A stretch of 32,000 nt of DNA from Vibrio algivorus. GTDB taxonomy: Bacteria > Pseudomonadota > Gammaproteobacteria > Enterobacterales > Vibrionaceae. Below, piece after piece: positions 5,052 to 26,462 of this stretch. The notes under the pieces are model-generated. The model saw only the letters and a list, made by a program, of their open reading frames with translations, made no database searches and was not told the DNA's origin. Every line of letters starts with the position of its first letter. The first letter of the stretch is position 1. The position numbers and the translations under genes are program-made. Where the stretch lies: the NCBI GenBank assembly GCA_002218005.2, contig AP018679.1; one strand, 5' to 3'.

Positions 5052-5085
5052 AAAAAAGCCGCTAAGTATAAAAACTTAACGGCTT
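5052..5085 (-). terminator. rho-independent terminator downstream of fnr
   Basis: Stem AAGCCGCTAAGT (5056-5067) / ACTTAACGGCTT (5074-5085) with one mismatch. It is followed on the minus strand by a T6 run (A-run 5052-5057 on plus). Confidence 0.55.
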
Positions 5086-5110
5086 AATCATTGATTAATT
5101 ATCGAATTTT

Positions 5111-5857: not shown

Positions 5858-5877
5858 AAAATACCGAGCAGTTTTAA

Positions 5878-5891
5878 TTGATATACATCAA
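5878..5891. promoter_or_regulatory. consensus FNR box TTGAT-N4-ATCAA upstream of fnr (autoregulatory site)
   Basis: The sequence TTGATATACATCAA is an exact match to both FNR half-sites. It lies 21 bp upstream of the fnr ATG. Confidence 0.7.
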
Positions 5892-5950
5892 TATTTTATC
5901 ACTCCATACTACTAAAGGACAGCAGAAAATCATCAGACATAACAGTTATA

Positions 5951-6622: not shown

Positions 6623-6813
6623 AGGGGCTTATCTTTTTTTTCAACAGGCTCAACAACCTTATCATCAAGATCATCGTTGTCATCAAATAAAATACTATGC
6701 CCTTGACGATCGAGATCATCAAATTGATCCGTTTTTACCGCCCACATAAACAAAGCGACGGCGATACAAACAAATATGATGGCTATTGGAATTAACAAAT
6801 ATAAGCTGGCCAT
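6619..6813 (-). CDS. ccoS: cbb3-type cytochrome oxidase maturation protein CcoS/FixS
   Basis: 64 aa with a single TM helix followed by the acidic QFDDLDRQGHSILFDD tail characteristic of CcoS. It sits immediately downstream of ccoI. Confidence 0.85.
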   Translation of the reverse strand: MASLYLLIPIAIIFVCIAVALFMWAVKTDQFDDLDRQGHSILFDDNDDLDDKVVEPVEKKDKPL

Positions 6814-6826
6814 TTAAAGAACCTTA

Positions 6827-9217: not shown

Positions 9218-9226
9218 TTTTACGCC

Positions 9227-9706
9227 TTAATCAAGTAAAACAGTTGGTGTTTTGCTAGGAAATGCGACTTTTCCTTGGATAATCCATTCTTGGTTATGTG
9301 GCTCTAGTTTAATGAACCAAGGGCCTTCTAACGGTGTATCTAAACTAAGTCGATAATTACCATTAGCATCAGAACTAAGAGTTCGTTCGAAATCACGATC
9401 AGGGAGGGTTCGATGAGTAAATGAAACCTTTAAAGCTGGGTAAAGCTCGAGCTTTCCTTTATCTAACTTGAAGCTCACACCTCTAGGGGTTGAAATGACA
9501 CTAGCATTAAGTTTGAAACCTTTTGCGACATGTATTCTAGTCAGATCGACATTAATTCCTTTTCCTTCTTTATAATAATTTTCAGAAACCAAATCGACGC
9601 TATTTTTCGTGAATAGGCCAAGGGTAACGAAACTACCTGTGACAGCACACATAGGAAGGAAAATTAAAAACCAAGGCCAGAATTGTTTGTACCAGGGCTG
9701 TTGCAT
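9227..9706 (-). CDS. ccoH: FixH/CcoH family cbb3 oxidase assembly protein
   Basis: N-terminus MQQPWYKQFWPWFLI followed by a TM helix, typical of FixH. It is positioned between ccoP and ccoI. Confidence 0.8.
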   Translation of the reverse strand: MQQPWYKQFWPWFLIFLPMCAVTGSFVTLGLFTKNSVDLVSENYYKEGKGINVDLTRIHVAKGFKLNASVISTPRGVSFKLDKGKLELYPALKVSFTHRTLPDRDFERTLSSDANGNYRLSLDTPLEGPWFIKLEPHNQEWIIQGKVAFPSKTPTVLLD

Positions 9707-9740
9707 AGGGTTCTCACAAATAAAACGAAATAGATATAAG

Positions 9741-9767
9741 AAAAAACAGCCCCAAAATGGGGCTGTT
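9741..9767 (-). terminator. rho-independent terminator after ccoP
   Basis: 9-bp stem AACAGCCCC (9745-9753) / GGGGCTGTT (9759-9767). It is followed on the minus strand by a T-run (9741-9746 on plus). Confidence 0.65.
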
Positions 9768-9782
9768 AAACCACTTAATGTA

Positions 9783-10775
9783 TTATTGGGCAGGCTCTGA
9801 TTGAGTTTGGTTACTCAAACTCCAGACATAAGCACCAACAAGGTGAACTTTATCATCACCTAAGATATTACTCCAAGCAGGCATCACACCTTGACGACCA
9901 TACTGAACAGATTCAGTGACATCTGCGCGAGAATCGCCAAACAGCCAATCATTATCCGTCAGATCCGGTGCACCAAATGCTGGGTTACCTTTGCCGTCAG
10001 TACCATGACAAGCCGCACAAGCTGCAAAGCGTACTTTACCAGCTGCAGCTTCACGTGAGTTAACTTTACGTCCAGATAAGCTCAATACATAACTTACTAC
10101 TTCACGTACACCATCATCACCAAATGTTTCTCCCCATGCAGGCATCGCACCTACACGACCATGGCGAATAGTAGTTAAGATAGCCTCAGGCTCACCACCG
10201 TACAACCAAGCATCGTCGGTTAAATTAGGGAAACCTTTGAAACCACGAGCATCAGATCCATGACACTGAGAACAATTTTGCAAAAATAAATTTTGTCCTA
10301 CGCGTAAGGCGTCTGGATCTGAAGCAATTTCAGGTAATGTACGGTATGCAGTACCTTCAGAGTTATAAGCTAGGCGCTTAAACGACTCACCGTAAAATTT
10401 ATCGGCATCATCTAACTCTTTTGCATATTGATCTAACTGCTGATTATCTTGTGAAGCTTTAATTGATGCTTCCATTTCTTCAACAGATTTAACTTGCTGC
10501 GCAGAGCTCGTCCAACCTAGAAGGCCAGGGTAATTACCTAAACCTGGGAACAAAGCTAAATAAACAGCAGCAAAGATAAATGTTGAGAAGAATAAGTAAG
10601 TCCACCATTTTGGAAGTGGGTTGTTTAGCTCACGAATACCATCGTATTCATGCCCCATATCCGCACCTTCTTCTACGCCCATTTTATCTTTTAGACACCA
10701 GATTAAAATAGCCGCAATACCAAAGATTGTGCCCAGTGTAATTACGGTAATCCAAACACTCCAGAATGTAGTCAT
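9783..10775 (-). CDS. ccoP: cbb3-type cytochrome c oxidase subunit III, dihaem CcoP
   Basis: N-terminal TM helix and two haem-c motifs, CSQCHG and CAACHG. Confidence 0.93.
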   Translation of the reverse strand: MTTFWSVWITVITLGTIFGIAAILIWCLKDKMGVEEGADMGHEYDGIRELNNPLPKWWTYLFFSTFIFAAVYLALFPGLGNYPGLLGWTSSAQQVKSVEEMEASIKASQDNQQLDQYAKELDDADKFYGESFKRLAYNSEGTAYRTLPEIASDPDALRVGQNLFLQNCSQCHGSDARGFKGFPNLTDDAWLYGGEPEAILTTIRHGRVGAMPAWGETFGDDGVREVVSYVLSLSGRKVNSREAAAGKVRFAACAACHGTDGKGNPAFGAPDLTDNDWLFGDSRADVTESVQYGRQGVMPAWSNILGDDKVHLVGAYVWSLSNQTQSEPAQ

Positions 10776-13808: not shown

Positions 13809-13836
13809 ATTTAACATAATATACGTAATGCGCACT
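13809..13836. other. dif: dif, the 28-bp XerCD chromosome dimer resolution site (host XerD arm and 6-bp central region joined to a phage-derived XerC arm)
   Basis: ATTTAACATAA TATACG TAATGCGCACT. Its reverse complement, AGTGCGCATTA CGTATA TTATGTTAAAT, is near-identical to E. coli and V. cholerae dif as I remember them. It lies exactly at the left prophage boundary. Confidence 0.9.
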
Positions 13837-13837
13837 A

Positions 13838-15274
13838 TTAGATTGGTAAAATTGCATCCATATTGGGTAAGTCATTTCTCGATTTATTTGGTTGCATTGA
13901 ATTAGCCAGGTCTGTGATTGGATTGTTAACCTGGTCGCCAAAATCATTTGGTGTTTTTCTCATGTCACACGTCAGGAACTTACGAACGCCAGCTGTATTC
14001 ATTTCAACTAAACAATAATCTAAAACCTTAAATTGATAACCCATCTTTTCTAGCATTGAGTTATAAACATAAGATTCAGAGCCATCAGTCATTGTTTGTT
14101 TAAATACGATTGTTGGTATCACTTTTGTATCTGTTATTTTCAAACTGATGCCGCCTACATATACATTGGTAACATCAAATGGCCAAAGTTCAGGAACAGT
14201 GTTTACGCTGCGATTATTAAAAAACGGCTCACCACTCTCAGACAAAAGGCGACTATCATGAACATCATCAATCTGTACATTACGTATCTTAGAATCGGTT
14301 TTATCCATTGGTAAAACTTGGTTATTGGTTTGGCCAGTTTGGTTAACGGTTTGATTAGAATTGATATCCTGTGTTGAATCATCAGAATTATAACGTTGAT
14401 ACGCATCGATGCCCCCATAAATGACATAAAGAATTGAACAAAGCCCTAGCAACATTACTAAGACAAATTTGAAATTTGATAATGGACTAGAAGCAAGTCC
14501 TGATTTTGTTGTTTTGCCCGTTACTGTTGATTTATAAAGAAGATGAACCGCAAGAGGAACTTTAACCCGTCTACACTCTTCAGGCTTTGGACTGTTAAAG
14601 CTCGTTGCGTTTGGGTCATGTTCATACAATCTAGGTTTGCGCTTTGTGAAAAAAAACGAATCTTTAGATTTATGATGTATGGCAACCTCAGCACATGAAC
14701 GAACTTCAGTAGATAACTTTTTAATATTGGGTGTAACGAAAGTAATATCCCAGTTAAAGTGACGGTGTCTTGATATCGATTCTTCAAACGTTGGAGGTAA
14801 TCGAATGAGCCCATTATCATCAAATAAAGTTTCCCCTGAATCATCAATATCAATAGTTGATTCATCTGGTTTATAAGCCTCTAAAACACGGTTATAAAAA
14901 TCTGGATACCAGTCAGGCAAACCCTCTTTAAACTTTTCCAAACCTTGATATGTATTCTTAGCCATATCAAAGCCGACCGTTTTAGAATATATGTCCTGAC
15001 ATTCATCAATGATCATATAAGCGCCCATAGGCATCCAGTTGTAGAAGTTCTGCCACATATAACGGCCAGATTCAGTAAGCGAATAGATTTTTATAATTTT
15101 GGCTGATGGTGGAAATCGCTCACCTAGACGTTTTTCAATAGTTTCAACACTTTCCATACCTTGTATGTTTGTGACAACAACACGACCATTTCTAAGCGCA
15201 GGTAGTAAATCAAACCATACAGCGGTAGCTGACTTGTAAGAACCATTGGCACCATGACGAATTTTAACAGCCAT
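13838..15274 (-). CDS. Zot/pI-family phage assembly ATPase (gene I equivalent)
   Basis: Walker A-like GANGSYKS, Walker B MIIDEC, and WDITFVTP (compare Ff pI WDIIFLVQ). A central TM helix (FKFVLVMLLGLCSILYVIYGGI) is followed by an approximately 190-aa periplasmic C-terminal part. The stop codon lies 1 nt from the XerC arm. Confidence 0.88.
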   Translation of the reverse strand: MAVKIRHGANGSYKSATAVWFDLLPALRNGRVVVTNIQGMESVETIEKRLGERFPPSAKIIKIYSLTESGRYMWQNFYNWMPMGAYMIIDECQDIYSKTVGFDMAKNTYQGLEKFKEGLPDWYPDFYNRVLEAYKPDESTIDIDDSGETLFDDNGLIRLPPTFEESISRHRHFNWDITFVTPNIKKLSTEVRSCAEVAIHHKSKDSFFFTKRKPRLYEHDPNATSFNSPKPEECRRVKVPLAVHLLYKSTVTGKTTKSGLASSPLSNFKFVLVMLLGLCSILYVIYGGIDAYQRYNSDDSTQDINSNQTVNQTGQTNNQVLPMDKTDSKIRNVQIDDVHDSRLLSESGEPFFNNRSVNTVPELWPFDVTNVYVGGISLKITDTKVIPTIVFKQTMTDGSESYVYNSMLEKMGYQFKVLDYCLVEMNTAGVRKFLTCDMRKTPNDFGDQVNNPITDLANSMQPNKSRNDLPNMDAILPI

Positions 15275-15276
15275 AA

Positions 15277-15684
15277 TTAAGACCCCATGAAATCTAGAAC
15301 AAATCGAGTAACCATTGCTTCAACGATTCGGGTTAAACCAACAAAAATTCCATATTGATTCATCAAGCCTTTTTGCTGTGTTGAAAGACCTGAAAAAGCA
15401 TCATTAAGAAGTGAATCGAGGGAAAGATTTTGCATAAGTGAAATAGCTACACCATAAGCAAATTGAATAGATTCAAGCTGTAATTTGAGCTTAATAATCA
15501 CGCAATATTCAATGATGTAAGCGAACATTTGTTGAAAAAATGTAGGGGCATAACTGAAAAAATCACCAACATAATCCCCAATATCAACAAAATAACCAAT
15601 GATTGAGTTTTCTTCTTCTGGAGTAGCTGCATAAGTGCCAGACGAAAAAAACAAAAGTAAAAACGGAATAAAAAGGATCTTCAT
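15277..15684 (-). CDS. minor coat protein, gene VI positional equivalent (hydrophobic)
   Basis: 135-aa hydrophobic protein between the gIII-like and gI-like genes, separated by only 1-2 nt intergenic gaps. The assignment rests on position and hydrophobicity only. Confidence 0.6.
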   Translation of the reverse strand: MKILFIPFLLLFFSSGTYAATPEEENSIIGYFVDIGDYVGDFFSYAPTFFQQMFAYIIEYCVIIKLKLQLESIQFAYGVAISLMQNLSLDSLLNDAFSGLSTQQKGLMNQYGIFVGLTRIVEAMVTRFVLDFMGS

Positions 15685-15685
15685 C

Positions 15686-17089
15686 TTATCGTCTCCTTAC
15701 GATAATAATTGAAAAGGCAACCAGTGAACAAAGAGCAATGATTGCGGTAGAAATTAAGCTTGAATTATCAGACCAATATGAATTAGAAGTGCTAACAGTC
15801 CCCCATCTACCAGATAGAGTTATATTTTCATCAGAATAAGAACCTCCAGAGAAAGACGGAGCAATGTTTAAGTCAGTTTTAAACTGATTTATTTTGTCTT
15901 GAATCTGTTGAGTTAAATCATCTTTTTTCTGAGATAACTCGGCGAACTTTGAAGAATCAAAGACAGTAGAAAAATGATTCGATTGGGTGAAGTCCGGCAA
16001 ATCTCCAAACGGTGTTTTATTACAGTCTGGGTATTCTGGATTTTTATCACAAAATGATTTATTCATTTCATTTTCTATATTGTCTAAGTGCTTATTGGTT
16101 TGCGTAGTTCCTGAGAGTTGTTGACCAAGTTTCTTATTGATTTCTGTCTGTTGACCAAGTTGAGCTTTATAAAGTTTATTGTTCTGGTCAGATTTGGAAT
16201 CATAATTAGTAATAAACTCTTTCATTTTATGATTCATATTTTCAAGGTGTTGATTGGTAATAACCGCTTCTTTGTAAAGTGCATTATCCCCCTCGGTTAA
16301 ATTTGGGTTATCGCTAAGACTTGATGAATCTGGATTTTGATTAGGGTCATCCGTGAAAGGTGTATCAGAGTTATTACATAAATCGATACCTAATTCACAA
16401 GGATTAGGGTTTGAATTTAAATCATCAGGATTAGTAGATTCTTCTGGAATTTCTTCAGGCGGTGTTTCTGGAGGTAAAGCACACTCTTCATTTTCAGGAT
16501 TACAAATAGGTGTTTCTGGATTAGTTTCAGATTCACAAGTTAAACCCTGTATGCAATCTTTTTTATCATAATTACATGAAGTACTAACATCAGGTGAATT
16601 ATTTGACTCATTATCAACACAAGACCAATTAAAAACAGTTTCATAAAAAGAACTATTAGGATTGTTTAATTGACATGAATATTGTTCATTTTGAAATTGT
16701 TTTTGAATAGATGAATCGGAACAAAAAGTTGGTTCAATCTGACATCGACCATCAGAAGTTTCAACTGGATGAGTAGCAGGACAACCAGAAAAAGGAGAAA
16801 AAGAACCGTCATAGGCTGCTATTCTCACATTAGCAGAAGTAGCTTTGCACCAAATGCCATTCGAAACAACTTGAGGATTATCCAAACAAAGTTCTGTATC
16901 AAGTGAAGATAAATAGGGTAAACATAATGAATGTGGTTTGGATGAAAGATAAGTATCAAAATAAACAGGTTCACTTTTATAAAACGTACAACGGGCTTTT
17001 AAAATTACTTTATCAACTGTTTCAGCCTTAACGGGAATCGTATAAATATTAGAAAATACAAAAACGAAAAATAATAAAATCCATTTCAT
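15686..17089 (-). CDS. pIII-like minor coat / host-adsorption protein
   Basis: Signal peptide, a Cys-rich N-terminal domain, a Pro/Glu/Asn/Asp-rich low-complexity linker, and a C-terminal TM anchor ending in RRR (LISTAIIALCSLVAFSIIIVRRR). It occupies the gene III position. Confidence 0.8.
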   Translation of the reverse strand: MKWILLFFVFVFSNIYTIPVKAETVDKVILKARCTFYKSEPVYFDTYLSSKPHSLCLPYLSSLDTELCLDNPQVVSNGIWCKATSANVRIAAYDGSFSPFSGCPATHPVETSDGRCQIEPTFCSDSSIQKQFQNEQYSCQLNNPNSSFYETVFNWSCVDNESNNSPDVSTSCNYDKKDCIQGLTCESETNPETPICNPENEECALPPETPPEEIPEESTNPDDLNSNPNPCELGIDLCNNSDTPFTDDPNQNPDSSSLSDNPNLTEGDNALYKEAVITNQHLENMNHKMKEFITNYDSKSDQNNKLYKAQLGQQTEINKKLGQQLSGTTQTNKHLDNIENEMNKSFCDKNPEYPDCNKTPFGDLPDFTQSNHFSTVFDSSKFAELSQKKDDLTQQIQDKINQFKTDLNIAPSFSGGSYSDENITLSGRWGTVSTSNSYWSDNSSLISTAIIALCSLVAFSIIIVRRR

Positions 17090-17095
17090 AAGATC

Positions 17096-17119
17096 AAAAA
17101 AAGGGGCAATTAAGCCCCC
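17096..17119 (-). terminator. rho-independent terminator between the coat-gene block and the gIII-like gene
   Basis: The minus strand reads GGGGC TTAATT GCCCC followed by T7. This corresponds to the Ff terminator after gene VIII. Confidence 0.7.
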
Positions 17120-17136
17120 TCTCCTATAGTTAAAAA

Positions 17137-17229
17137 TTAATGTGTTTGAATGCCTGAAACAAAACCATAAATAAAGCTCATGGAGGATGAGATACCAAAA
17201 ATGATTTCTACAGGCATTGACCCCATCAT
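17137..17229 (-). CDS. 30-aa hydrophobic protein (candidate pVII/pIX-like minor coat protein; below the ORF-track cutoff)
   Basis: Hand translation: MMGSMPVEIIFGISSSMSFIYGFVSGIQTH. The ATG abuts the gVIII stop (TAAATG) and the ORF is followed by the terminator. Size and hydrophobicity resemble Ff pVII/pIX. Confidence 0.45.
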   Translation of the reverse strand: MMGSMPVEIIFGISSSMSFIYGFVSGIQTH

Positions 17230-17442
17230 TTACTTATTTAACCAACGAATAAGAAGACCCGCACCAAAGCCGATTGCAGCAACCGAAATAACGCCAGCAA
17301 CTACAAGAGTATAGTTTGCAGAAGAATCTGTAACCGCAGCATTAATATCAGTAGCGTAATCAGCAGCGAACGCAGTAGATGAAGCAGCAATAGAAGAAAC
17401 TACAGCACCAGTTTTTAGAGCAATGTTTTTAAAAGTTTTCAT
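17230..17442 (-). CDS. major coat protein (pVIII-type)
   Basis: Signal peptide ending AFA/AD. The approximately 44-aa mature part has an acidic N-terminus, a hydrophobic core (LVVAGVISVAAIGFGAGLLI) and a basic C-terminus (RWLNK). Confidence 0.88.
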   Translation of the reverse strand: MKTFKNIALKTGAVVSSIAASSTAFAADYATDINAAVTDSSANYTLVVAGVISVAAIGFGAGLLIRWLNK

Positions 17443-17466
17443 ATCAATATCCTATAAATAAAAAAA

Positions 17467-17670
17467 TTAAAGTTTGCTCATCCATCGTACGACTCGGCCA
17501 GCTCCATGACCAACGACAAACGAAAGTAAAAGATACCCAGAAACTTCCAGATATAGAGCTTTATCAAACACAAGGTTTGTTTGGGGAATGTCAGACGGTT
17601 CAAGCAAAATATAACCCTGACAAGTGTCATAGGTATCAGTTGTGACCTGACCATCTAACAAACATTTCAT
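17467..17670 (-). CDS. small phage protein with a C-terminal TM helix and basic tail (candidate minor coat protein)
   Basis: 67 aa. The C-terminus GYLLLSFVVGHGAGRVVRWMSKL resembles the coat-protein C-terminus. Its start overlaps the upstream stop (ATGA). Confidence 0.6.
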   Translation of the reverse strand: MKCLLDGQVTTDTYDTCQGYILLEPSDIPQTNLVFDKALYLEVSGYLLLSFVVGHGAGRVVRWMSKL

Positions 17671-17861
17671 ATATGACTCTCAAAAATTCCTAGTTCACGA
17701 ACACGCTTTAAATCAAGGACTTCGTTTGAACCGCAATCTTCACAAGAAATATCACCAATTAAAGAGCAGTCATTATCAGACCTAAATAACTGCCAATTGA
17801 TAGAAGATGAATCACAACAAGTACAAACTAAATCATCATCCTTTAAAGCAAATAAAGTCAT
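17667..17861 (-). CDS. Cys-rich 64-aa phage protein (zinc-ribbon-like CxCC...C...CxxC)
   Basis: MTLFALKDDDLVCTCCDSS...CSLIGDISCEDCGS. It is translationally coupled on both sides (TAATG with gV, ATGA with the next gene). Confidence 0.6.
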   Translation of the reverse strand: MTLFALKDDDLVCTCCDSSSINWQLFRSDNDCSLIGDISCEDCGSNEVLDLKRVRELGIFESHI

Positions 17862-18160
17862 TACGAAACCTTACTAAGTTGAGCCTGATTTACAGGAACT
17901 AATTTTAAGTTACGGTCGAACTCTAAGCGGTCGAACTGTCCAACCTTGAAAGAATCTTGGGTAAAATAATATTTACCCTCAGTGTATGCAGGTTGCCCTT
18001 CCTCAAGTGGAAGACGAAACTCAACAGGGAATTTACCGCCAGTATGAGCGTATGCAACTTGAGAATATAATTTCATCGCAGCTCGTTTATCATTTGCAGG
18101 CAGTTCGCGAACGTCTACCACTTCATTTTCTTTAAATACTTCGATAATTAATTGATTCAT
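17861..18160 (-). CDS. ssDNA-binding protein, Ff gene V homologue
   Basis: LEEGQPAYTEGKYYFTQDSFKVGQFDRLEFDRNLKLVP aligns with M13 gpV ...LDEGQPAYAPGLYTVHLSSFKVGQFGSLMIDRLRLVP (from memory). It is located directly after the replication gene. Confidence 0.88.
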   Translation of the reverse strand: MNQLIIEVFKENEVVDVRELPANDKRAAMKLYSQVAYAHTGGKFPVEFRLPLEEGQPAYTEGKYYFTQDSFKVGQFDRLEFDRNLKLVPVNQAQLSKVS

Positions 18161-18171
18161 TTTTTAATTCC

Positions 18172-18558
18172 TTATGCCACTAAGTGGATTACATTTTCAT
18201 CAAAACCATATAAACGGGAAATATCCCCTACTTTCTCTACATAATCAGACGGTCGCTGATTTGCGAAATCTATTTCAATAACTTGAAGTAATGGAACGAC
18301 ATTATCTTTTCCATTGCCTTGTAAATTCTGTAATTGAGCTTTGGAGAAACCCGCCTTAAGCAAAAGATTTAAATTATCGTAAAAAGTACTACTAGAACTA
18401 AAGGTATCTTTAACTGCATTGTAACCATCAGATACCAATGAACGATAAAAACGAAAAACTCTATCGGCCTTTGAATATGACATATTTCCTTTAGGTGTTA
18501 CTTTTACATAAATTGACTTTAAATTTGTATAAACTTCATCATCATTAAATATATTCAT
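18172..18558 (-). CDS. candidate nested gene X-like product (in-frame internal start within gII, 128 aa)
   Basis: Internal ATG at 18558 (Met304, MNIFNDDEV...) is preceded by AAGGGG 6 nt upstream. It aligns with the M13 gene X start (MNIYDDSAV). Confidence 0.45.
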   Translation of the reverse strand: MNIFNDDEVYTNLKSIYVKVTPKGNMSYSKADRVFRFYRSLVSDGYNAVKDTFSSSSTFYDNLNLLLKAGFSKAQLQNLQGNGKDNVVPLLQVIEIDFANQRPSDYVEKVGDISRLYGFDENVIHLVA

Positions 18559-19467
18559 CTTTTGCCCCTTAAGCGCATCTAACAACGGGCTGTACGCTCT
18601 TAACCATATATCTTTAATTAAACAGGATTTGTTTTCTTTTTCATATTTAACTTGATACTTAATAGCATCAATTAATTTTTTAGGTACTTCAAATTCATCT
18701 AAATATCTACGCTTTGCACTAGCTTCAAACCTAACAAGATTGCGAGCATAATTAATTAAAAAAGGGTCACTCATTACATCAATAACTTTATCGTATTCTT
18801 TTGAACCTTTTTCTTTAAGTGAGCGCAATTGATCTAATTGTCTTTTGAATTCAAAATATTTTAAATAAACCTTTCTATCAACATGGCGTGAATTCTTAGA
18901 AAAATATGCGGTAGTCTCATACTCATTACGAACACTAGATCGCATTTGTTTATTTGAAATATTCTTAAGCTGATTAATAACCTGCTTTGACATATCTTCA
19001 TTTTTAACACGAGCAGAATAAGTGCAATCGACACAATCCAAAGTAGCGTTTGGGATATCTAGCATGTTATAGAAATCAGAATAAGCATTAAGCAAGCACA
19101 TCATCATTTCAGTTGAACCATTCAAAATTGACGTTGAACCATAAACATTATGGCCCTGAATAATTTTGGCCGGACTCGCTTTTAACTCTACACAAGCATC
19201 ACGAAGCGGAGTTCCTTGAAAAATCTTAAACGCCATACCAGTAAAGGAAGTAGCTAAACTCTGATAAGGATGACGCAAGTCAGTAACTTCAAAACCGTCA
19301 TTGCGTTCGTTGCCAGTAAAATGAACAGATTTAGCTTCAAGACCTACACCACGAGAAGAACATTCCTTCAAATCAACATAACGAACGCACTGACCAGTAG
19401 CCGTCTGTTGAGTTTGAAGAAGATATTCTTCTTTAAACGGTATAGAGATTTTAAGCATATCAATCAT
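18172..19467 (-). CDS. rolling-circle replication initiator, Ff gene II homologue
   Basis: MIDML start, plus ...FTGMAFKIFQG...VELKASPAKIIQGHNVYG...LVRFEASAKRRYL...MNIFNDDEV...VVPLLQVIEIDFANQRP. These parallel M13 gpII (MIDMLVLRLPF..., VEIKASPAKVLQGHNVFG, LVRFEARIKTRYL, MNIYDDSAV, from memory). Confidence 0.9.
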   Translation of the reverse strand: MIDMLKISIPFKEEYLLQTQQTATGQCVRYVDLKECSSRGVGLEAKSVHFTGNERNDGFEVTDLRHPYQSLATSFTGMAFKIFQGTPLRDACVELKASPAKIIQGHNVYGSTSILNGSTEMMMCLLNAYSDFYNMLDIPNATLDCVDCTYSARVKNEDMSKQVINQLKNISNKQMRSSVRNEYETTAYFSKNSRHVDRKVYLKYFEFKRQLDQLRSLKEKGSKEYDKVIDVMSDPFLINYARNLVRFEASAKRRYLDEFEVPKKLIDAIKYQVKYEKENKSCLIKDIWLRAYSPLLDALKGQKMNIFNDDEVYTNLKSIYVKVTPKGNMSYSKADRVFRFYRSLVSDGYNAVKDTFSSSSTFYDNLNLLLKAGFSKAQLQNLQGNGKDNVVPLLQVIEIDFANQRPSDYVEKVGDISRLYGFDENVIHLVA

Positions 19468-19480
19468 AAAGGTAACTTTG

Positions 19481-19555
19481 TCACAAGTGATTTAGATTAT
19501 AAATTAATACATCATCACATGTGACAATGCAAGAAAAGATACAAATAACTTGTGA
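19481..19555. promoter_or_regulatory. divergent promoter/operator region: three copies of the palindromic motif TCACA(A/T)GTGA
   Basis: TCACAAGTGA at 19481-19490, the perfect palindrome TCACATGTGA at 19515-19524, and ACTTGTGA at 19548-19555 (reverse orientation, 8/10). Spacing is 34 and about 31 bp. A minus-strand TATAAT lies at 19496-19501, between the first two sites. Confidence 0.5.
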
Positions 19556-19599
19556 TGAAGTTACAATGTTATGAAGTGACTCGAAATTAAGGAGGCAAA

Positions 19600-19758
19600 A
19601 TGCCCACTCTAAGACTTGATGAAAAAAGATGGCGAGAGATTGAAAAAAAAGCCGTTGATATGACTATAAAGACACAAAAACCTGTAACGGTACCAGAAGT
19701 AATAAAGGCCGTACTAGATAAATGCTTAAAAGAATTGAAACCAGAAGATCTAAAGTAA
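19600..19758 (+). CDS. 52-aa ribbon-helix-helix-like transcriptional regulator, divergent from gII (RstR-position analogue; below the ORF-track cutoff)
   Basis: AAGGAGG SD 4 nt upstream of the ATG. Hand translation: MPTLRLDEKRWREIEKKAVDMTIKTQKPVTVPEVIKAVLDKCLKELKPEDLK, a short N-terminal strand followed by two helices. It is the only plus-strand gene in the phage and lies between the origin and gII. Confidence 0.6.
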   Translation: MPTLRLDEKRWREIEKKAVDMTIKTQKPVTVPEVIKAVLDKCLKELKPEDLK

Positions 19759-19775
19759 ATTCCGAAATCCGGACA

Positions 19776-19804
19776 AGAGTACACTATTAAAGATAGTGTA
19801 CTCT
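19776..19804 (-). other. plus-strand replication origin hairpin with an Ff-type gpII nick motif
   Basis: The minus strand reads AGAGTACACTAT CTTTA ATAGTGTACTCT, followed by TGTCCGGATTTCGGA. The core CTTTAATAGTGtACTCTTGT matches the f1/M13 origin GTTCTTTAATAGTGGACTCTTGTTCC (from memory). The stem is 12 bp and perfect. Confidence 0.75.
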
Positions 19805-20037
19805 CCCTGCCTCCTTGCTCCTCCGCGCTCAGCTTTCGCTTGTGCGTCGCAATCGTCCGGTCGAGATAAAAATCATTTTAAAAGAGAAAAGAATTCTAGA
19901 GGATGAAGGTTTTTTCATCTAACTGGTATGTCATTTTTTTAACATACCCAGCTTTGGTGCGGTTAGTGACGGATGTCCTCCGAGCACTATGAGAATGTAA
20001 TTACTATGCAGTAGCTTTAGAATTCGGGTGGGCTGAT

Positions 20038-20149
20038 AGTTCGCATTACGGCCATTATGCTAAAGGCGCACTTCGTGCGGTCGCCAGTGCTGCGCAATGG
20101 TACTGACGACCACGCTTTCAACATAATGCCAGACTACGTAATGCGCACT
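20038..20149. other. attP region at the copy 1/copy 2 junction: two inverted dif-like sites able to fold into a forked hairpin
   Basis: Site A (20038-20065) is AGTTCGCATTA CGGCCA TTATGCTAAAG. Site B (20116-20149) has the reverse complement AGTGCGCATTA CGTAGTCTGGCA TTATGTTGAAA. The arms are complementary, the central regions differ (6 versus 12 nt), and the inner stem CGTGCGGTCG/CGACCACG extends the hairpin. Confidence 0.8.
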
Positions 20150-20150
20150 A

Positions 20151-21587
20151 TTAGATTGGTAAAATTGCATCCATATTGGGTAAGTCATTTCTCGATTTAT
20201 TTGGTTGCATTGAATTAGCCAGGTCTGTGATTGGATTGTTAACCTGGTCGCCAAAATCATTTGGTGTTTTTCTCATGTCACACGTCAGGAACTTACGAAC
20301 GCCAGCTGTATTCATTTCAACTAAACAATAATCTAAAACCTTAAATTGATAACCCATCTTTTCTAGCATTGAGTTATAAACATAAGATTCAGAGCCATCA
20401 GTCATTGTTTGTTTAAATACGATTGTTGGTATCACTTTTGTATCTGTTATTTTCAAACTGATGCCGCCTACATATACATTGGTAACATCAAATGGCCAAA
20501 GTTCAGGAACAGTGTTTACGCTGCGATTATTAAAAAACGGCTCACCACTCTCAGACAAAAGGCGACTATCATGAACATCATCAATCTGTACATTACGTAT
20601 CTTAGAATCGGTTTTATCCATTGGTAAAACTTGGTTATTGGTTTGGCCAGTTTGGTTAACGGTTTGATTAGAATTGATATCCTGTGTTGAATCATCAGAA
20701 TTATAACGTTGATACGCATCGATGCCCCCATAAATGACATAAAGAATTGAACAAAGCCCTAGCAACATTACTAAGACAAATTTGAAATTTGATAATGGAC
20801 TAGAAGCAAGTCCTGATTTTGTTGTTTTGCCCGTTACTGTTGATTTATAAAGAAGATGAACCGCAAGAGGAACTTTAACCCGTCTACACTCTTCAGGCTT
20901 TGGACTGTTAAAGCTCGTTGCGTTTGGGTCATGTTCATACAATCTAGGTTTGCGCTTTGTGAAAAAAAACGAATCTTTAGATTTATGATGTATGGCAACC
21001 TCAGCACATGAACGAACTTCAGTAGATAACTTTTTAATATTGGGTGTAACGAAAGTAATATCCCAGTTAAAGTGACGGTGTCTTGATATCGATTCTTCAA
21101 ACGTTGGAGGTAATCGAATGAGCCCATTATCATCAAATAAAGTTTCCCCTGAATCATCAATATCAATAGTTGATTCATCTGGTTTATAAGCCTCTAAAAC
21201 ACGGTTATAAAAATCTGGATACCAGTCAGGCAAACCCTCTTTAAACTTTTCCAAACCTTGATATGTATTCTTAGCCATATCAAAGCCGACCGTTTTAGAA
21301 TATATGTCCTGACATTCATCAATGATCATATAAGCGCCCATAGGCATCCAGTTGTAGAAGTTCTGCCACATATAACGGCCAGATTCAGTAAGCGAATAGA
21401 TTTTTATAATTTTGGCTGATGGTGGAAATCGCTCACCTAGACGTTTTTCAATAGTTTCAACACTTTCCATACCTTGTATGTTTGTGACAACAACACGACC
21501 ATTTCTAAGCGCAGGTAGTAAATCAAACCATACAGCGGTAGCTGACTTGTAAGAACCATTGGCACCATGACGAATTTTAACAGCCAT
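20151..21587 (-). CDS. Zot/pI-family phage assembly ATPase (copy 2)
   Basis: Translation identical to 13838..15274. Confidence 0.88.
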   Translation of the reverse strand: MAVKIRHGANGSYKSATAVWFDLLPALRNGRVVVTNIQGMESVETIEKRLGERFPPSAKIIKIYSLTESGRYMWQNFYNWMPMGAYMIIDECQDIYSKTVGFDMAKNTYQGLEKFKEGLPDWYPDFYNRVLEAYKPDESTIDIDDSGETLFDDNGLIRLPPTFEESISRHRHFNWDITFVTPNIKKLSTEVRSCAEVAIHHKSKDSFFFTKRKPRLYEHDPNATSFNSPKPEECRRVKVPLAVHLLYKSTVTGKTTKSGLASSPLSNFKFVLVMLLGLCSILYVIYGGIDAYQRYNSDDSTQDINSNQTVNQTGQTNNQVLPMDKTDSKIRNVQIDDVHDSRLLSESGEPFFNNRSVNTVPELWPFDVTNVYVGGISLKITDTKVIPTIVFKQTMTDGSESYVYNSMLEKMGYQFKVLDYCLVEMNTAGVRKFLTCDMRKTPNDFGDQVNNPITDLANSMQPNKSRNDLPNMDAILPI

Positions 21588-21589
21588 AA

Positions 21590-21997
21590 TTAAGACCCCA
21601 TGAAATCTAGAACAAATCGAGTAACCATTGCTTCAACGATTCGGGTTAAACCAACAAAAATTCCATATTGATTCATCAAGCCTTTTTGCTGTGTTGAAAG
21701 ACCTGAAAAAGCATCATTAAGAAGTGAATCGAGGGAAAGATTTTGCATAAGTGAAATAGCTACACCATAAGCAAATTGAATAGATTCAAGCTGTAATTTG
21801 AGCTTAATAATCACGCAATATTCAATGATGTAAGCGAACATTTGTTGAAAAAATGTAGGGGCATAACTGAAAAAATCACCAACATAATCCCCAATATCAA
21901 CAAAATAACCAATGATTGAGTTTTCTTCTTCTGGAGTAGCTGCATAAGTGCCAGACGAAAAAAACAAAAGTAAAAACGGAATAAAAAGGATCTTCAT
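21590..21997 (-). CDS. gene VI-position minor coat protein (copy 2)
   Basis: Translation identical to 15277..15684. Confidence 0.6.
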   Translation of the reverse strand: MKILFIPFLLLFFSSGTYAATPEEENSIIGYFVDIGDYVGDFFSYAPTFFQQMFAYIIEYCVIIKLKLQLESIQFAYGVAISLMQNLSLDSLLNDAFSGLSTQQKGLMNQYGIFVGLTRIVEAMVTRFVLDFMGS

Positions 21998-21998
21998 C

Positions 21999-23402
21999 TT
22001 ATCGTCTCCTTACGATAATAATTGAAAAGGCAACCAGTGAACAAAGAGCAATGATTGCGGTAGAAATTAAGCTTGAATTATCAGACCAATATGAATTAGA
22101 AGTGCTAACAGTCCCCCATCTACCAGATAGAGTTATATTTTCATCAGAATAAGAACCTCCAGAGAAAGACGGAGCAATGTTTAAGTCAGTTTTAAACTGA
22201 TTTATTTTGTCTTGAATCTGTTGAGTTAAATCATCTTTTTTCTGAGATAACTCGGCGAACTTTGAAGAATCAAAGACAGTAGAAAAATGATTCGATTGGG
22301 TGAAGTCCGGCAAATCTCCAAACGGTGTTTTATTACAGTCTGGGTATTCTGGATTTTTATCACAAAATGATTTATTCATTTCATTTTCTATATTGTCTAA
22401 GTGCTTATTGGTTTGCGTAGTTCCTGAGAGTTGTTGACCAAGTTTCTTATTGATTTCTGTCTGTTGACCAAGTTGAGCTTTATAAAGTTTATTGTTCTGG
22501 TCAGATTTGGAATCATAATTAGTAATAAACTCTTTCATTTTATGATTCATATTTTCAAGGTGTTGATTGGTAATAACCGCTTCTTTGTAAAGTGCATTAT
22601 CCCCCTCGGTTAAATTTGGGTTATCGCTAAGACTTGATGAATCTGGATTTTGATTAGGGTCATCCGTGAAAGGTGTATCAGAGTTATTACATAAATCGAT
22701 ACCTAATTCACAAGGATTAGGGTTTGAATTTAAATCATCAGGATTAGTAGATTCTTCTGGAATTTCTTCAGGCGGTGTTTCTGGAGGTAAAGCACACTCT
22801 TCATTTTCAGGATTACAAATAGGTGTTTCTGGATTAGTTTCAGATTCACAAGTTAAACCCTGTATGCAATCTTTTTTATCATAATTACATGAAGTACTAA
22901 CATCAGGTGAATTATTTGACTCATTATCAACACAAGACCAATTAAAAACAGTTTCATAAAAAGAACTATTAGGATTGTTTAATTGACATGAATATTGTTC
23001 ATTTTGAAATTGTTTTTGAATAGATGAATCGGAACAAAAAGTTGGTTCAATCTGACATCGACCATCAGAAGTTTCAACTGGATGAGTAGCAGGACAACCA
23101 GAAAAAGGAGAAAAAGAACCGTCATAGGCTGCTATTCTCACATTAGCAGAAGTAGCTTTGCACCAAATGCCATTCGAAACAACTTGAGGATTATCCAAAC
23201 AAAGTTCTGTATCAAGTGAAGATAAATAGGGTAAACATAATGAATGTGGTTTGGATGAAAGATAAGTATCAAAATAAACAGGTTCACTTTTATAAAACGT
23301 ACAACGGGCTTTTAAAATTACTTTATCAACTGTTTCAGCCTTAACGGGAATCGTATAAATATTAGAAAATACAAAAACGAAAAATAATAAAATCCATTTC
23401 AT
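21999..23402 (-). CDS. pIII-like adsorption protein (copy 2)
   Basis: Translation identical to 15686..17089. Confidence 0.8.
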   Translation of the reverse strand: MKWILLFFVFVFSNIYTIPVKAETVDKVILKARCTFYKSEPVYFDTYLSSKPHSLCLPYLSSLDTELCLDNPQVVSNGIWCKATSANVRIAAYDGSFSPFSGCPATHPVETSDGRCQIEPTFCSDSSIQKQFQNEQYSCQLNNPNSSFYETVFNWSCVDNESNNSPDVSTSCNYDKKDCIQGLTCESETNPETPICNPENEECALPPETPPEEIPEESTNPDDLNSNPNPCELGIDLCNNSDTPFTDDPNQNPDSSSLSDNPNLTEGDNALYKEAVITNQHLENMNHKMKEFITNYDSKSDQNNKLYKAQLGQQTEINKKLGQQLSGTTQTNKHLDNIENEMNKSFCDKNPEYPDCNKTPFGDLPDFTQSNHFSTVFDSSKFAELSQKKDDLTQQIQDKINQFKTDLNIAPSFSGGSYSDENITLSGRWGTVSTSNSYWSDNSSLISTAIIALCSLVAFSIIIVRRR

Positions 23403-23408
23403 AAGATC

Positions 23409-23432
23409 AAAAAAAGGGGCAATTAAGCCCCC
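23409..23432 (-). terminator. phage internal terminator (copy 2)
   Basis: Same sequence as 17096..17119. Confidence 0.7.
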
Positions 23433-23449
23433 TCTCCTATAGTTAAAAA

Positions 23450-23542
23450 TTAATGTGTTTGAATGCCTGAAACAAAACCATAAATAAAGCTCATGGAGGA
23501 TGAGATACCAAAAATGATTTCTACAGGCATTGACCCCATCAT
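23450..23542 (-). CDS. 30-aa hydrophobic protein (copy 2)
   Basis: Same sequence as 17137..17229. Confidence 0.45.
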   Translation of the reverse strand: MMGSMPVEIIFGISSSMSFIYGFVSGIQTH

Positions 23543-23755
23543 TTACTTATTTAACCAACGAATAAGAAGACCCGCACCAAAGCCGATTGCAGCAACCGAA
23601 ATAACGCCAGCAACTACAAGAGTATAGTTTGCAGAAGAATCTGTAACCGCAGCATTAATATCAGTAGCGTAATCAGCAGCGAACGCAGTAGATGAAGCAG
23701 CAATAGAAGAAACTACAGCACCAGTTTTTAGAGCAATGTTTTTAAAAGTTTTCAT
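23543..23755 (-). CDS. major coat protein (copy 2)
   Basis: Translation identical to 17230..17442. Confidence 0.88.
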   Translation of the reverse strand: MKTFKNIALKTGAVVSSIAASSTAFAADYATDINAAVTDSSANYTLVVAGVISVAAIGFGAGLLIRWLNK

Positions 23756-23779
23756 ATCAATATCCTATAAATAAAAAAA

Positions 23780-23983
23780 TTAAAGTTTGCTCATCCATCG
23801 TACGACTCGGCCAGCTCCATGACCAACGACAAACGAAAGTAAAAGATACCCAGAAACTTCCAGATATAGAGCTTTATCAAACACAAGGTTTGTTTGGGGA
23901 ATGTCAGACGGTTCAAGCAAAATATAACCCTGACAAGTGTCATAGGTATCAGTTGTGACCTGACCATCTAACAAACATTTCAT
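23780..23983 (-). CDS. 67-aa TM-tailed phage protein (copy 2)
   Basis: Translation identical to 17467..17670. Confidence 0.6.
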   Translation of the reverse strand: MKCLLDGQVTTDTYDTCQGYILLEPSDIPQTNLVFDKALYLEVSGYLLLSFVVGHGAGRVVRWMSKL

Positions 23984-24174
23984 ATATGACTCTCAAAAAT
24001 TCCTAGTTCACGAACACGCTTTAAATCAAGGACTTCGTTTGAACCGCAATCTTCACAAGAAATATCACCAATTAAAGAGCAGTCATTATCAGACCTAAAT
24101 AACTGCCAATTGATAGAAGATGAATCACAACAAGTACAAACTAAATCATCATCCTTTAAAGCAAATAAAGTCAT
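23980..24174 (-). CDS. Cys-rich 64-aa phage protein (copy 2)
   Basis: Translation identical to 17667..17861. Confidence 0.6.
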   Translation of the reverse strand: MTLFALKDDDLVCTCCDSSSINWQLFRSDNDCSLIGDISCEDCGSNEVLDLKRVRELGIFESHI

Positions 24175-24473
24175 TACGAAACCTTACTAAGTTGAGCCTG
24201 ATTTACAGGAACTAATTTTAAGTTACGGTCGAACTCTAAGCGGTCGAACTGTCCAACCTTGAAAGAATCTTGGGTAAAATAATATTTACCCTCAGTGTAT
24301 GCAGGTTGCCCTTCCTCAAGTGGAAGACGAAACTCAACAGGGAATTTACCGCCAGTATGAGCGTATGCAACTTGAGAATATAATTTCATCGCAGCTCGTT
24401 TATCATTTGCAGGCAGTTCGCGAACGTCTACCACTTCATTTTCTTTAAATACTTCGATAATTAATTGATTCAT
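24174..24473 (-). CDS. gene V-like ssDNA-binding protein (copy 2)
   Basis: Translation identical to 17861..18160. Confidence 0.88.
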   Translation of the reverse strand: MNQLIIEVFKENEVVDVRELPANDKRAAMKLYSQVAYAHTGGKFPVEFRLPLEEGQPAYTEGKYYFTQDSFKVGQFDRLEFDRNLKLVPVNQAQLSKVS

Positions 24474-24484
24474 TTTTTAATTCC

Positions 24485-25780
24485 TTATGCCACTAAGTGG
24501 ATTACATTTTCATCAAAACCATATAAACGGGAAATATCCCCTACTTTCTCTACATAATCAGACGGTCGCTGATTTGCGAAATCTATTTCAATAACTTGAA
24601 GTAATGGAACGACATTATCTTTTCCATTGCCTTGTAAATTCTGTAATTGAGCTTTGGAGAAACCCGCCTTAAGCAAAAGATTTAAATTATCGTAAAAAGT
24701 ACTACTAGAACTAAAGGTATCTTTAACTGCATTGTAACCATCAGATACCAATGAACGATAAAAACGAAAAACTCTATCGGCCTTTGAATATGACATATTT
24801 CCTTTAGGTGTTACTTTTACATAAATTGACTTTAAATTTGTATAAACTTCATCATCATTAAATATATTCATCTTTTGCCCCTTAAGCGCATCTAACAACG
24901 GGCTGTACGCTCTTAACCATATATCTTTAATTAAACAGGATTTGTTTTCTTTTTCATATTTAACTTGATACTTAATAGCATCAATTAATTTTTTAGGTAC
25001 TTCAAATTCATCTAAATATCTACGCTTTGCACTAGCTTCAAACCTAACAAGATTGCGAGCATAATTAATTAAAAAAGGGTCACTCATTACATCAATAACT
25101 TTATCGTATTCTTTTGAACCTTTTTCTTTAAGTGAGCGCAATTGATCTAATTGTCTTTTGAATTCAAAATATTTTAAATAAACCTTTCTATCAACATGGC
25201 GTGAATTCTTAGAAAAATATGCGGTAGTCTCATACTCATTACGAACACTAGATCGCATTTGTTTATTTGAAATATTCTTAAGCTGATTAATAACCTGCTT
25301 TGACATATCTTCATTTTTAACACGAGCAGAATAAGTGCAATCGACACAATCCAAAGTAGCGTTTGGGATATCTAGCATGTTATAGAAATCAGAATAAGCA
25401 TTAAGCAAGCACATCATCATTTCAGTTGAACCATTCAAAATTGACGTTGAACCATAAACATTATGGCCCTGAATAATTTTGGCCGGACTCGCTTTTAACT
25501 CTACACAAGCATCACGAAGCGGAGTTCCTTGAAAAATCTTAAACGCCATACCAGTAAAGGAAGTAGCTAAACTCTGATAAGGATGACGCAAGTCAGTAAC
25601 TTCAAAACCGTCATTGCGTTCGTTGCCAGTAAAATGAACAGATTTAGCTTCAAGACCTACACCACGAGAAGAACATTCCTTCAAATCAACATAACGAACG
25701 CACTGACCAGTAGCCGTCTGTTGAGTTTGAAGAAGATATTCTTCTTTAAACGGTATAGAGATTTTAAGCATATCAATCAT
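24485..25780 (-). CDS. gene II-like replication initiator (copy 2; nested gX-like start at 24871)
   Basis: Translation identical to 18172..19467. Confidence 0.9.
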   Translation of the reverse strand: MIDMLKISIPFKEEYLLQTQQTATGQCVRYVDLKECSSRGVGLEAKSVHFTGNERNDGFEVTDLRHPYQSLATSFTGMAFKIFQGTPLRDACVELKASPAKIIQGHNVYGSTSILNGSTEMMMCLLNAYSDFYNMLDIPNATLDCVDCTYSARVKNEDMSKQVINQLKNISNKQMRSSVRNEYETTAYFSKNSRHVDRKVYLKYFEFKRQLDQLRSLKEKGSKEYDKVIDVMSDPFLINYARNLVRFEASAKRRYLDEFEVPKKLIDAIKYQVKYEKENKSCLIKDIWLRAYSPLLDALKGQKMNIFNDDEVYTNLKSIYVKVTPKGNMSYSKADRVFRFYRSLVSDGYNAVKDTFSSSSTFYDNLNLLLKAGFSKAQLQNLQGNGKDNVVPLLQVIEIDFANQRPSDYVEKVGDISRLYGFDENVIHLVA

Positions 25781-25793
25781 AAAGGTAACTTTG

Positions 25794-25868
25794 TCACAAG
25801 TGATTTAGATTATAAATTAATACATCATCACATGTGACAATGCAAGAAAAGATACAAATAACTTGTGA
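25794..25868. promoter_or_regulatory. operator/promoter region (copy 2)
   Basis: Same sequence as 19481..19555. Confidence 0.5.
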
Positions 25869-25912
25869 TGAAGTTACAATGTTATGAAGTGACTCGAAAT
25901 TAAGGAGGCAAA

Positions 25913-26071
25913 ATGCCCACTCTAAGACTTGATGAAAAAAGATGGCGAGAGATTGAAAAAAAAGCCGTTGATATGACTATAAAGACACAAAAACCTGTAA
26001 CGGTACCAGAAGTAATAAAGGCCGTACTAGATAAATGCTTAAAAGAATTGAAACCAGAAGATCTAAAGTAA
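25913..26071 (+). CDS. 52-aa RHH-like regulator (copy 2)
   Basis: Same sequence as 19600..19758. Confidence 0.6.
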   Translation: MPTLRLDEKRWREIEKKAVDMTIKTQKPVTVPEVIKAVLDKCLKELKPEDLK

Positions 26072-26088
26072 ATTCCGAAATCCGGACA

Positions 26089-26117
26089 AGAGTACACTAT
26101 TAAAGATAGTGTACTCT
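26089..26117 (-). other. plus-strand origin hairpin (copy 2)
   Basis: Same sequence as 19776..19804. Confidence 0.75.
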
Positions 26118-26350
26118 CCCTGCCTCCTTGCTCCTCCGCGCTCAGCTTTCGCTTGTGCGTCGCAATCGTCCGGTCGAGATAAAAATCATTTTAAAAGAGA
26201 AAAGAATTCTAGAGGATGAAGGTTTTTTCATCTAACTGGTATGTCATTTTTTTAACATACCCAGCTTTGGTGCGGTTAGTGACGGATGTCCTCCGAGCAC
26301 TATGAGAATGTAATTACTATGCAGTAGCTTTAGAATTCGGGTGGGCTGAT

Positions 26351-26462
26351 AGTTCGCATTACGGCCATTATGCTAAAGGCGCACTTCGTGCGGTCGCCAG
26401 TGCTGCGCAATGGTACTGACGACCACGCTTTCAACATAATGCCAGACTACGTAATACGCACT
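26351..26462. other. attP-derived region and right prophage/host junction (phage XerD-like arm, 12-bp central region, host XerC arm)
   Basis: 26429-26462 reads TTTCAACATAA TGCCAGACTACG TAATACGCACT. The XerC arm carries A at 26456 where the other two copies carry G. Sequence to the right (AAAGTTGTAGG...) is unrelated to the phage. Confidence 0.8.

Follow-up and report, generated by a model that had tools for sequence, protein, structure and literature searches.

A probable CTX-type folded attachment site in a tandem filamentous prophage at dif of Vibrio algivorus

The closest described relatives of the locus analysed here are the CTX-type IMEX, whose listed members are CTXphi, RS1, Ypfphi, and CUS-1phi (PMC4246890). 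In the CTX model, two sites with centres of different length, attP1 (12 bp) and attP2 (5–7 bp) (PMC4246890, PMC3089051), anneal in the (+) single-stranded genome. XerC alone then exchanges one pair of strands with dif, directed by homology beside the XerC arm, and the resulting junction is left for replication to resolve. One side regains a functional dif, which permits tandem insertions, while the other is masked in duplex DNA, so that there is no excision; phage DNA is produced by rolling-circle replication over the tandem copies (PMC4246890, PMC3089051, PMC4439123, PMC5357621). A tandem prophage is accordingly a prediction of CTX biology (PMC4439123). The forked hairpin of attP1 and attP2 goes back to Val et al. 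2005 and Das et al. 2010, as summarized in review passages (PMC3089051, PMC4246890).

Other IMEX classes take different routes. The VGJphi type (VGJ, VEJ, VSK, fs2, f237) likewise comprises integrase-less Vibrio filamentous phages that act XerC-first at dif, but these carry a single 29-bp duplex attP with a 7-bp centre, leave both prophage ends Xer-competent, and integrate reversibly (PMC3089051, PMC5357621). The TLC type is recognized by a degenerate XerD arm, a centre identical to that of dif, and XerD-first exchange. We rejected the TLC type for the present locus, as its XerD arm, TTATGTTGAAA, is well conserved, its centre is not that of dif, and the crossover lies on the XerC side. Substrates said to form by single-strand folding, acted on by a tyrosine recombinase and followed by replicative resolution, are also shared with CUS-1phi and Ypfphi of E. 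coli and Yersinia and with integron attC (PMC3089051, PMC4792948). These differ from the present case in their hosts and, for integrons, in the recombinase (IntI) and the site family, and no sequence similarity of the attP described below to CUS-1phi, Ypfphi, or integron attC was detected.

We analysed a stretch of 32,000 nt from Vibrio algivorus, referred to throughout as the window. The host assignment agrees with the proteins flanking the element, which exact look-ups place in V. algivorus. The element it carries is a 6.3-kb, apparently integrase-less filamentous phage of this species, present in tandem at dif. Base-for-base identity runs from 13822-20142 to 20135-26455, and the ORFs from 13838 to 19784 repeat at an offset of 6313 nt. 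The two copies and the genes of copy 1 are as follows.

13826..20138, minus strand: prophage copy 1, 6313 bp
13838-15274, minus strand: zot/pI (Zot/pI assembly ATPase), copy 1
15277-15684, minus strand: pVI/Ace-like gene, copy 1
15686-17089, minus strand: pIII-like gene, copy 1
17230-17442, minus strand: major coat protein gene, copy 1
17861-18160, minus strand: ssDNA-binding protein gene (Pfam Phage_DNA_bind), copy 1
18172-19467, minus strand: pII-type Rep gene (Pfam Phage_CRI and G2P_X_C), copy 1
19600-19758, plus strand: divergent 52-aa ORF, copy 1
20139..26451, minus strand: prophage copy 2, identical to copy 1

The gene order (rep, ssb, coat, pIII, pVI, pI) is that of Ff/IKe-group inoviruses, a likeness confined to the backbone. 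Ff/IKe phages are non-integrative, lack dif-like sites, and encode a secretin. No recombinase family was matched among the nine ORFs scanned in the 6.3-kb unit, and megablast of the whole unit against deposited phages returned no match. The host genes xerC and xerD lie outside the window. Between rep and the divergent 52-aa ORF lies an AT-rich dyad (19465-19569) that is probably a promoter/operator palindrome, not an RNA gene. An Rfam search of 19300-20400 gave its sole match there, to a plant miRNA-precursor model on both strands (24.8 bits against a threshold of 84), and found no family at attP.

The attachment region occupies the junction between the two copies.

20038..20149, minus strand: complete attP region (site B, 50-nt spacer, and site A), where prophage copies 1 and 2 meet
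20038..20065, plus strand: site A, AGTTCGCATTA-CGGCCA-TTATGCTAAAG, whose complement would be the bottom strand of the folded site
20066-20115: attP spacer of 50 nt between site A and site B
20069..20077, minus strand: fork mini-hairpin 2, CAC-GAA-GTG
20078..20112, minus strand: fork hairpin 1, with an 11-bp stem, TGGTCGTCAGT/ACTGGCGACCG, and a 13-nt loop, ACCATTGCGCAGC
20116-20149, minus strand: site B as a whole, AGTGCGCATTA-CGTAGTCTGGCA-TTATGTTGAAA
20116-20149, plus strand: site B in plus-strand letters, CTTTCAACATAA-TGCCAGACTACG-TAATGCGCACT
20116..20126, minus strand: XerD-binding arm of site B, TTATGTTGAAA, well conserved
20127..20138, minus strand: 12-nt central region of site B, CGTAGTCTGGCA
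20139..20149, minus strand: XerC-binding arm of site B, AGTGCGCATTA, which would be the top strand of the folded site

A preliminary description of this region had reported two inverted dif-like sites 50 nt apart, and both their sequences and their coordinates are correct; an inverted-repeat finder recovers the same two arm pairs. The arm pattern GCATTA-N5-13-TTATGYTRAA matches four times in the window, against 0.01 expected. In site B the XerC arm, AGTGCGCATTA, is identical to the arm consensus of the dual-site family described below, and the first four nucleotides of the centre, CGTA, match the host dif centre, CGTATA. Between CGTAGTCTGGCA and CGTATA, four nucleotides agree next to the XerC arm, and there is no agreement next to the XerD arm. 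The earlier statement that neither site has a proper 6-bp centre homologous to dif needs to be divided: the centre of site A, CGGCCA, does have 6 nt, and only its CG is in common with the host dif centre. With centres of 12 and 6 nt, neither site is predicted to be a suitable duplex substrate. The stretch 20038-20149 was rejected as free phage genome, being the internal junction of a tandem prophage pair. Two ORFs called over the hairpin, of 53 aa (20057-20218, plus strand) and 66 aa (20060-20260, minus strand), were dismissed as mechanical because they span conserved non-coding structure and the zot stop and lack family support.

Folding of the gene-sense (minus) strand of 20030-20155 as ssDNA gave −29.8 kcal/mol, compared with −17.95 ± 2.62 for shuffled sequences (z −4.52), and none of 200 shuffles was equally stable, so the region passes the folding check that the preliminary description had proposed. 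The plus strand folds more weakly (−25.8 kcal/mol, z −2.97) because the G.T pairs turn into A.C mismatches there. In the predicted structure the CG and CA of the 12-nt centre pair with the 6-nt side and TAGTCT is bulged out, which is the 6-nt bulge that had been anticipated. The arms had been credited with one or two mismatches; this holds for the XerC arms, with a single G.A, and fails for the XerD arms, where two G.T wobbles and a terminal A.C add up to three non-Watson-Crick positions. An inner stem does extend the hairpin and is longer than had been stated: the spacer folds into a hairpin of 11 bp, whose loop has 13 nt, and a 3-bp mini-hairpin with a GAA loop, closed by GCG/CGC, and because it yields two hairpins the predicted structure is forked. 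The minimum free energy structure is a small fraction of the minus-strand ensemble, and the attP stem is weaker than that of CTX (−29.8 versus −48.4 kcal/mol). For the CTXphi attP the same tool returned, besides that energy, a z of −8.6 and a structure that is likewise forked at its top and whose bulge, of 5 nt, falls on the attP1 side.

The proposed likeness to the CTXphi attP(+) is borne out both by this common fold design and by nucleotide homology that includes the inner hairpin. A sensitive blastn search with a 126-nt attP query against 50,697 phage records matched 46, and the best 30 of these 46 are all CTXphi or pre-CTX attP/ig-1 sequences (82% over 76 nt, E 2e-10). The alignment to CTXphi shows conservation of both arms (XerC and XerD), of the 12-nt centre with its GGCA end, and of fork hairpin 1, whose shared form is GTCGTCAGT-ACCATTGCG..AGC-ACTGRCGRC; the second fork hairpin of CTX (~40 nt) is absent in the window, with mini-hairpin 2 in its place. 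Both attPs have two inverted dif-like sites, a 12-nt site-1 centre with the same GGCA end, a site-2 centre of 6–7 nt, a bulge on the site-1 side, and homology to dif only at the XerC side. They also agree in position, between the last gene for morphogenesis or cargo on one side and a small divergent ORF followed by rep on the other, in the structure of the product (one prophage end with a new dif, the other with masked sites), and in the tandem prophage. They differ in the spacer, which is ~90 nt in CTXphi and 50 nt in the window phage, and in the start of the centre, which is TGTG in El Tor CTX (dif1, TGTATG) whereas the window has CGTA, matching the V. algivorus CGTATA. At position 9 of the XerD arm the window has an A-T pair, whereas most family members have a conserved A.G mismatch.

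This homology does not extend to the backbone. CTXphi has RstA, RstB, and RstR, whereas the window phage has an Ff/IKe-type pII Rep with an ssDNA-binding protein and no toxin genes. Its Rep is 39–41% identical to pII of IKe, of Erwinia PEar phages, and of Ff, and similarity to CTXphi RstA was not seen, with no CTXphi or pre-CTX record among 56 tblastn hits. The window phage is not a member of the CTXphi lineage (Affertcholeramvirus), because the defining RS2 module (rstR-rstA-rstB) is absent. Since its Rep belongs to another family than RstA, the replication-linked steps are not simply transferable from CTX. Judged by its sequence, and in function by analogy, the site belongs with the attachment sites of CTX-type IMEX; it adds a further case of a mechanism already described, which it leaves unchanged. 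An exact scan of species-representative genomes with the 18-mer GTCGTCAGTACCATTGCG gave 13 hits, where we estimate that ~17 chance matches would be expected in 596 Gb. Real attPs were present only at those in V. anguillarum DSM 21597 and V. cholerae ATCC 14035, and the remaining 11 of the 13 were rejected as attP for lack of dif-like arms.

The outer ends of the array read as follows.

13809..13836, minus strand: regenerated 28-bp dif, AGTGCGCATTA-CGTATA-TTATGTTAAAT, at the left end of the array
26351..26462, minus strand: right-end attP copy, with site A unchanged
26429-26462, minus strand: right-end hybrid site B, AGTGCGTATTA-CGTAGTCTGGCA-TTATGTTGAAA

The left-end dif consists of the phage XerC arm, the host centre, and the host XerD arm, and is the only full 28-bp dif within the window. 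At the right end the 12-nt centre and XerD arm of the phage follow a host XerC arm, AGTGCGTATTA (26452-26462), which differs from the site B arm by one SNP; the adjoining site A is intact. Empty dif sites are found in two related assemblies, one of V. algivorus (GCA_007623795.1; L001) and one assembled from a Logan read set (L002); in both, the two flanking genes are adjacent and dif is uninterrupted, with centre CGTATA and XerD arm TTATGTTAAAT. Read from the array ends together with these empty sites, the ancestral dif of the window strain was AGTGCGTATTA-CGTATA-TTATGTTAAAT, with arms identical to those of V. cholerae dif1 (PMC3089051, Table I). The crossover is confined to 8 nt, ATTACGTA, across the boundary between XerC arm and centre. 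The recombined site is the one with the 12-nt centre (site B), which reads XerC-centre-XerD on the gene-sense strand, and the junctions match what would be the expected product of an XerC exchange at site B on that strand.

The tandem arrangement could in principle be an assembly decision. An independent short-read assembly from a read set of the same strain breaks exactly at ATTACGTA and collapses the unit to one contig of 6321 nt; both junction contigs are also present in it. GC skew over the window shows no clear sign change at dif and is uninformative at this scale. As a separate observation, the XerC arm of dif varies among three related assemblies, being AGTGCGTATTA in the window (26452-26462), AGTTCGCATTA in L001 (6583-6593), and AATGCGCATTA in L002 (~6583-6593), with centre and XerD arm constant. 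Earlier Xer-exploiting elements, each replacing that arm, may have left these differences behind as footprints.

Related phages allow the pairing between the two sites to be assessed by its evolution. The contig L079 is a circular metagenomic contig of 6977 nt (Logan assembly, 30-nt terminal overlap) whose Rep is at least 90% identical to that of the window. Its attP reads AATGCGCATTA-TGTAGTTTGTCG-TTATGTTGAAA ... TTTAGCATAA-CGGCCA-TAATGCGCACT and is predicted to adopt the same forked structure with a 6-nt bulge (−26.8, z −4.25). Twelve stem pairs differ between L079 and the window, and half of these (6/12) are double changes of the compensatory kind: the two ends of the central region contribute one each (C-G to T-A and A-T to G-C), and hairpin 1 and the mini-hairpin two each.

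Scanning IMG/VR with a pattern for site-1-like sequences yielded 54 loci with ~41 distinct dual-site variants, whose site-1 centres have 9–12 nt, site-2 centres 6–8 nt, and spacers 49–130 nt. Covariation was counted in 39 variants at four central-region pairs only; pairing statistics for the XerC and XerD arms were left out because site 2 had been located by its complementarity to site 1, a step in which the centre pairs played no part. These central pairs are paired in 91% of cells, compared with 64.5% in shuffles, a value that none of 500 shuffles reached, and 40 cells carry double changes, compared with 11 in shuffles; slid registers give central-region pairing of 28–58%. Over the whole stem on the gene-sense strand, G.T cells outnumber A.C cells by 89 to 18 (~5:1), as would be expected if this strand does the folding. 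By comparison across relatives, the compensatory changes in L079 and the family-wide covariation show that the pairing of site A with site B is itself under selection. Covariation of the two centres points to a hairpin, as two duplex sites 50–130 bp apart would have no reason to covary there.

The survey also places dual-site attPs beside both RstA-type and pII-type Rep genes, which suggests that the site travels as a module. L061, from IMG/VR, and L079, both from uncultivated Vibrio-type inoviruses, share with the window a 49–50-nt spacer, a hairpin 1 with the ACCATTGCG..AGC loop, and mini-hairpin 2. L061 differs in its RstA-type Rep (77% to CTX RstA), and L079, which is of the pII type, differs in a centre that starts TGTA, as if for a dif1-like target, and in an extra SET-domain gene. 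This gene, an ORF of 221 aa at 5902-6567 on the opposite strand, lies between zot and attP of L079, in the cargo slot held by ctxAB in CTXphi. No description of L061 or L079 was found in the literature searched. Many IMG/VR loci contain tandem arrays of dual-attP elements (L047, L040, L045, L046, L062, L068, and L009); L047 has four 3.1-kb units (882-10253) that are possibly an RS1-like satellite. In V. anguillarum DSM 21597 (L027) two different dual-site attP regions lie ~1 kb apart on a single contig (~500-800 and 1600-1760), which suggests an array of distinct CTX-type elements. The paper on V. anguillarum VAIphi reports only "a single attP" (PMC7412436), whereas L027 has clear dual sites.

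Other explanations of the locus have to be weighed against this evidence. If the phage were of the VGJphi type, its double-stranded replicative form would recombine with dif by way of a single duplex dif-like site, both the hairpin and the second site would be incidental, and excision would be possible. The junction letters do formally fit a duplex XerC-only exchange at site B, the spacer of site A has the normal 6 bp, and the gene set (pII-type Rep, ssDNA-binding protein, Zot) is unlike the RS2 module of CTX. However, site A is not the site that was used, and the site that recombined has a 12-bp centre, which in CTX is no duplex Xer substrate (PMC4246890). Because the right-end site keeps this 12-bp spacer, attL and attR would not both be Xer-competent, unlike those of VGJ (PMC5357621). 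The window phage thus departs from the VGJ type in its two sites, its 12-nt centre, and a right end predicted to be non-competent, and its homology is to the CTX attP and not to the 29-bp VGJ site, ACTTCGCATTA-TGTCGGC-TTATGGTAAAA (PMC3089051). Covariation of the centres, seen in the family and between the window and L079, would moreover have no rationale for two independent duplex sites, and we consider a VGJphi-type route improbable.

The hairpin might instead serve mainly as another single-strand signal, for packaging or as a complementary-strand origin as in Ff, with the dif-like arms secondary. It is the first structured element after zot, and Ff phages carry their packaging hairpin in the intergenic region that follows the last morphogenesis gene; in addition, the hairpin 1 loop, ACCATTGCG..AGC, stays the same on unrelated backbones although its stem covaries, which hints at sequence-specific recognition that would have nothing to do with Xer. 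Yet the prophage ends show recombination exactly at the XerC arm/centre boundary of site B, so the attachment function is real, and any further function of the fork would come on top of its part in attP and not in its stead. With no Rfam family matched at attP either, we regard this account as very improbable. That the region is a chance inverted repeat or an assembly artefact without function can draw on no more than the general frequency of short palindromes, and the tandem is not verifiable from the window alone. Such an account is contradicted by the excess of arm-pattern matches (4 versus 0.01) and the 0/200 shuffles that fold as well, by the homology to the CTX attP, by the empty site in a related strain, and by the recovery of the 6.3-kb unit with both junction contigs in the independent read-set assembly; its probability is negligible.

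We propose that the region is, with high probability, the attP of an integrase-less filamentous phage that integrates at dif by the CTX-type route, through Xer recombination of folded ssDNA. At the level of sequence all predictions of the CTX model are borne out, in that the 12-nt site is the one recombined, the strand sense is as expected, CGTA is shared on the XerC side only, a regenerated dif and a hybrid site flank the array, and the prophage is in tandem. From homology to CTX we infer an ssDNA substrate and irreversibility, and likewise catalysis by XerC alone with resolution by replication. The packaged strand in known inoviruses is the one with the sense of the phage genes, here the minus strand of the window. 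On this strand site B would anneal to the complement of site A to create one duplex Xer site. Its XerC and XerD arms would enclose a centre with 12 nt on one side and 6 nt on the other, held by 2 bp at either end with 6 nt bulged out, and a small fork would cap the stem. Host XerC and XerD would bind this folded site and the chromosomal dif, AGTGCGTATTA-CGTATA-TTATGTTAAAT; XerC would cut both top strands between arm and centre and swap them, and the shared CGTA would stabilize the joint. As the XerD side lacks homology, the reaction would halt at a pseudo-Holliday junction, which replication would convert into prophage. One end would gain a working dif able to take the next copy, and hence give rise to the tandem, while the other would become a 12-bp-spaced duplex site unusable by Xer, so that the prophage would not be expected to excise. 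Rolling-circle replication over the tandem would then supply new phage DNA.

Two further elements accompany these attachment sites. The loop ACCATTGCG(N1-2)AGC (window 20089-20101, minus strand) is invariant in CTXphi, pre-CTX, the V. anguillarum prophage, L061, L079, and the window; among the loci with this loop (L005, L006, L009, L021, L027, L061, and L079) the stem below it shows compensatory substitutions. An invariant loop on a covarying stem suggests that the fork hairpin 1 loop is recognized sequence-specifically. Most other dual-site attPs (31 of 42 variants) have a different spacer with a GTGGGCG block. Some 155–220 nt 3' of site 1 lies a near-perfect palindrome, GGTATGTYA-(A/T)5-7-TGACATAC, found in the window at 19925-19947 and 26238-26260 with one G.T in its stem, and common to CTX/pre-CTX ig-1 and to RstA-type and pII-type phages. 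Its presence alongside two unrelated families of Rep makes a role as a Rep-specific nick site unlikely. A bolder idea, which we put forward as speculative and rather unlikely, is that a portable cassette moves between RstA-type and pII-type backbones and comprises the pair of dif-like sites, fork hairpin 1 including the invariant loop, and the GGTATGTYA-A5-7-TGACATAC palindrome, the loop having a second sequence-specific single-strand function. Candidates for such a function would be the packaging signal or the complementary-strand origin of CTX-like phages.

Our data suggest that the ssDNA-hairpin route of integration is not peculiar to CTXphi or to V. cholerae. A homologous attP occurs in a phage of a different replication family from an environmental marine Vibrio, and public viral contigs contain ~40 variants of the dual-site design, which occur with either Rep backbone. 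The start of the phage centre tracks the centre of the host dif, with CGTA in the window and TGTA in L079, and the opposite limb compensates, a natural illustration of the published compatibility rule. With its compact 50-nt spacer, the window attP is a small natural attP(+) that could be a minimal substrate for work on Xer/ssDNA recombination. The interest of the locus is modest and mainly for specialists, and lies in what it says about the spread and modularity of the CTX solution.
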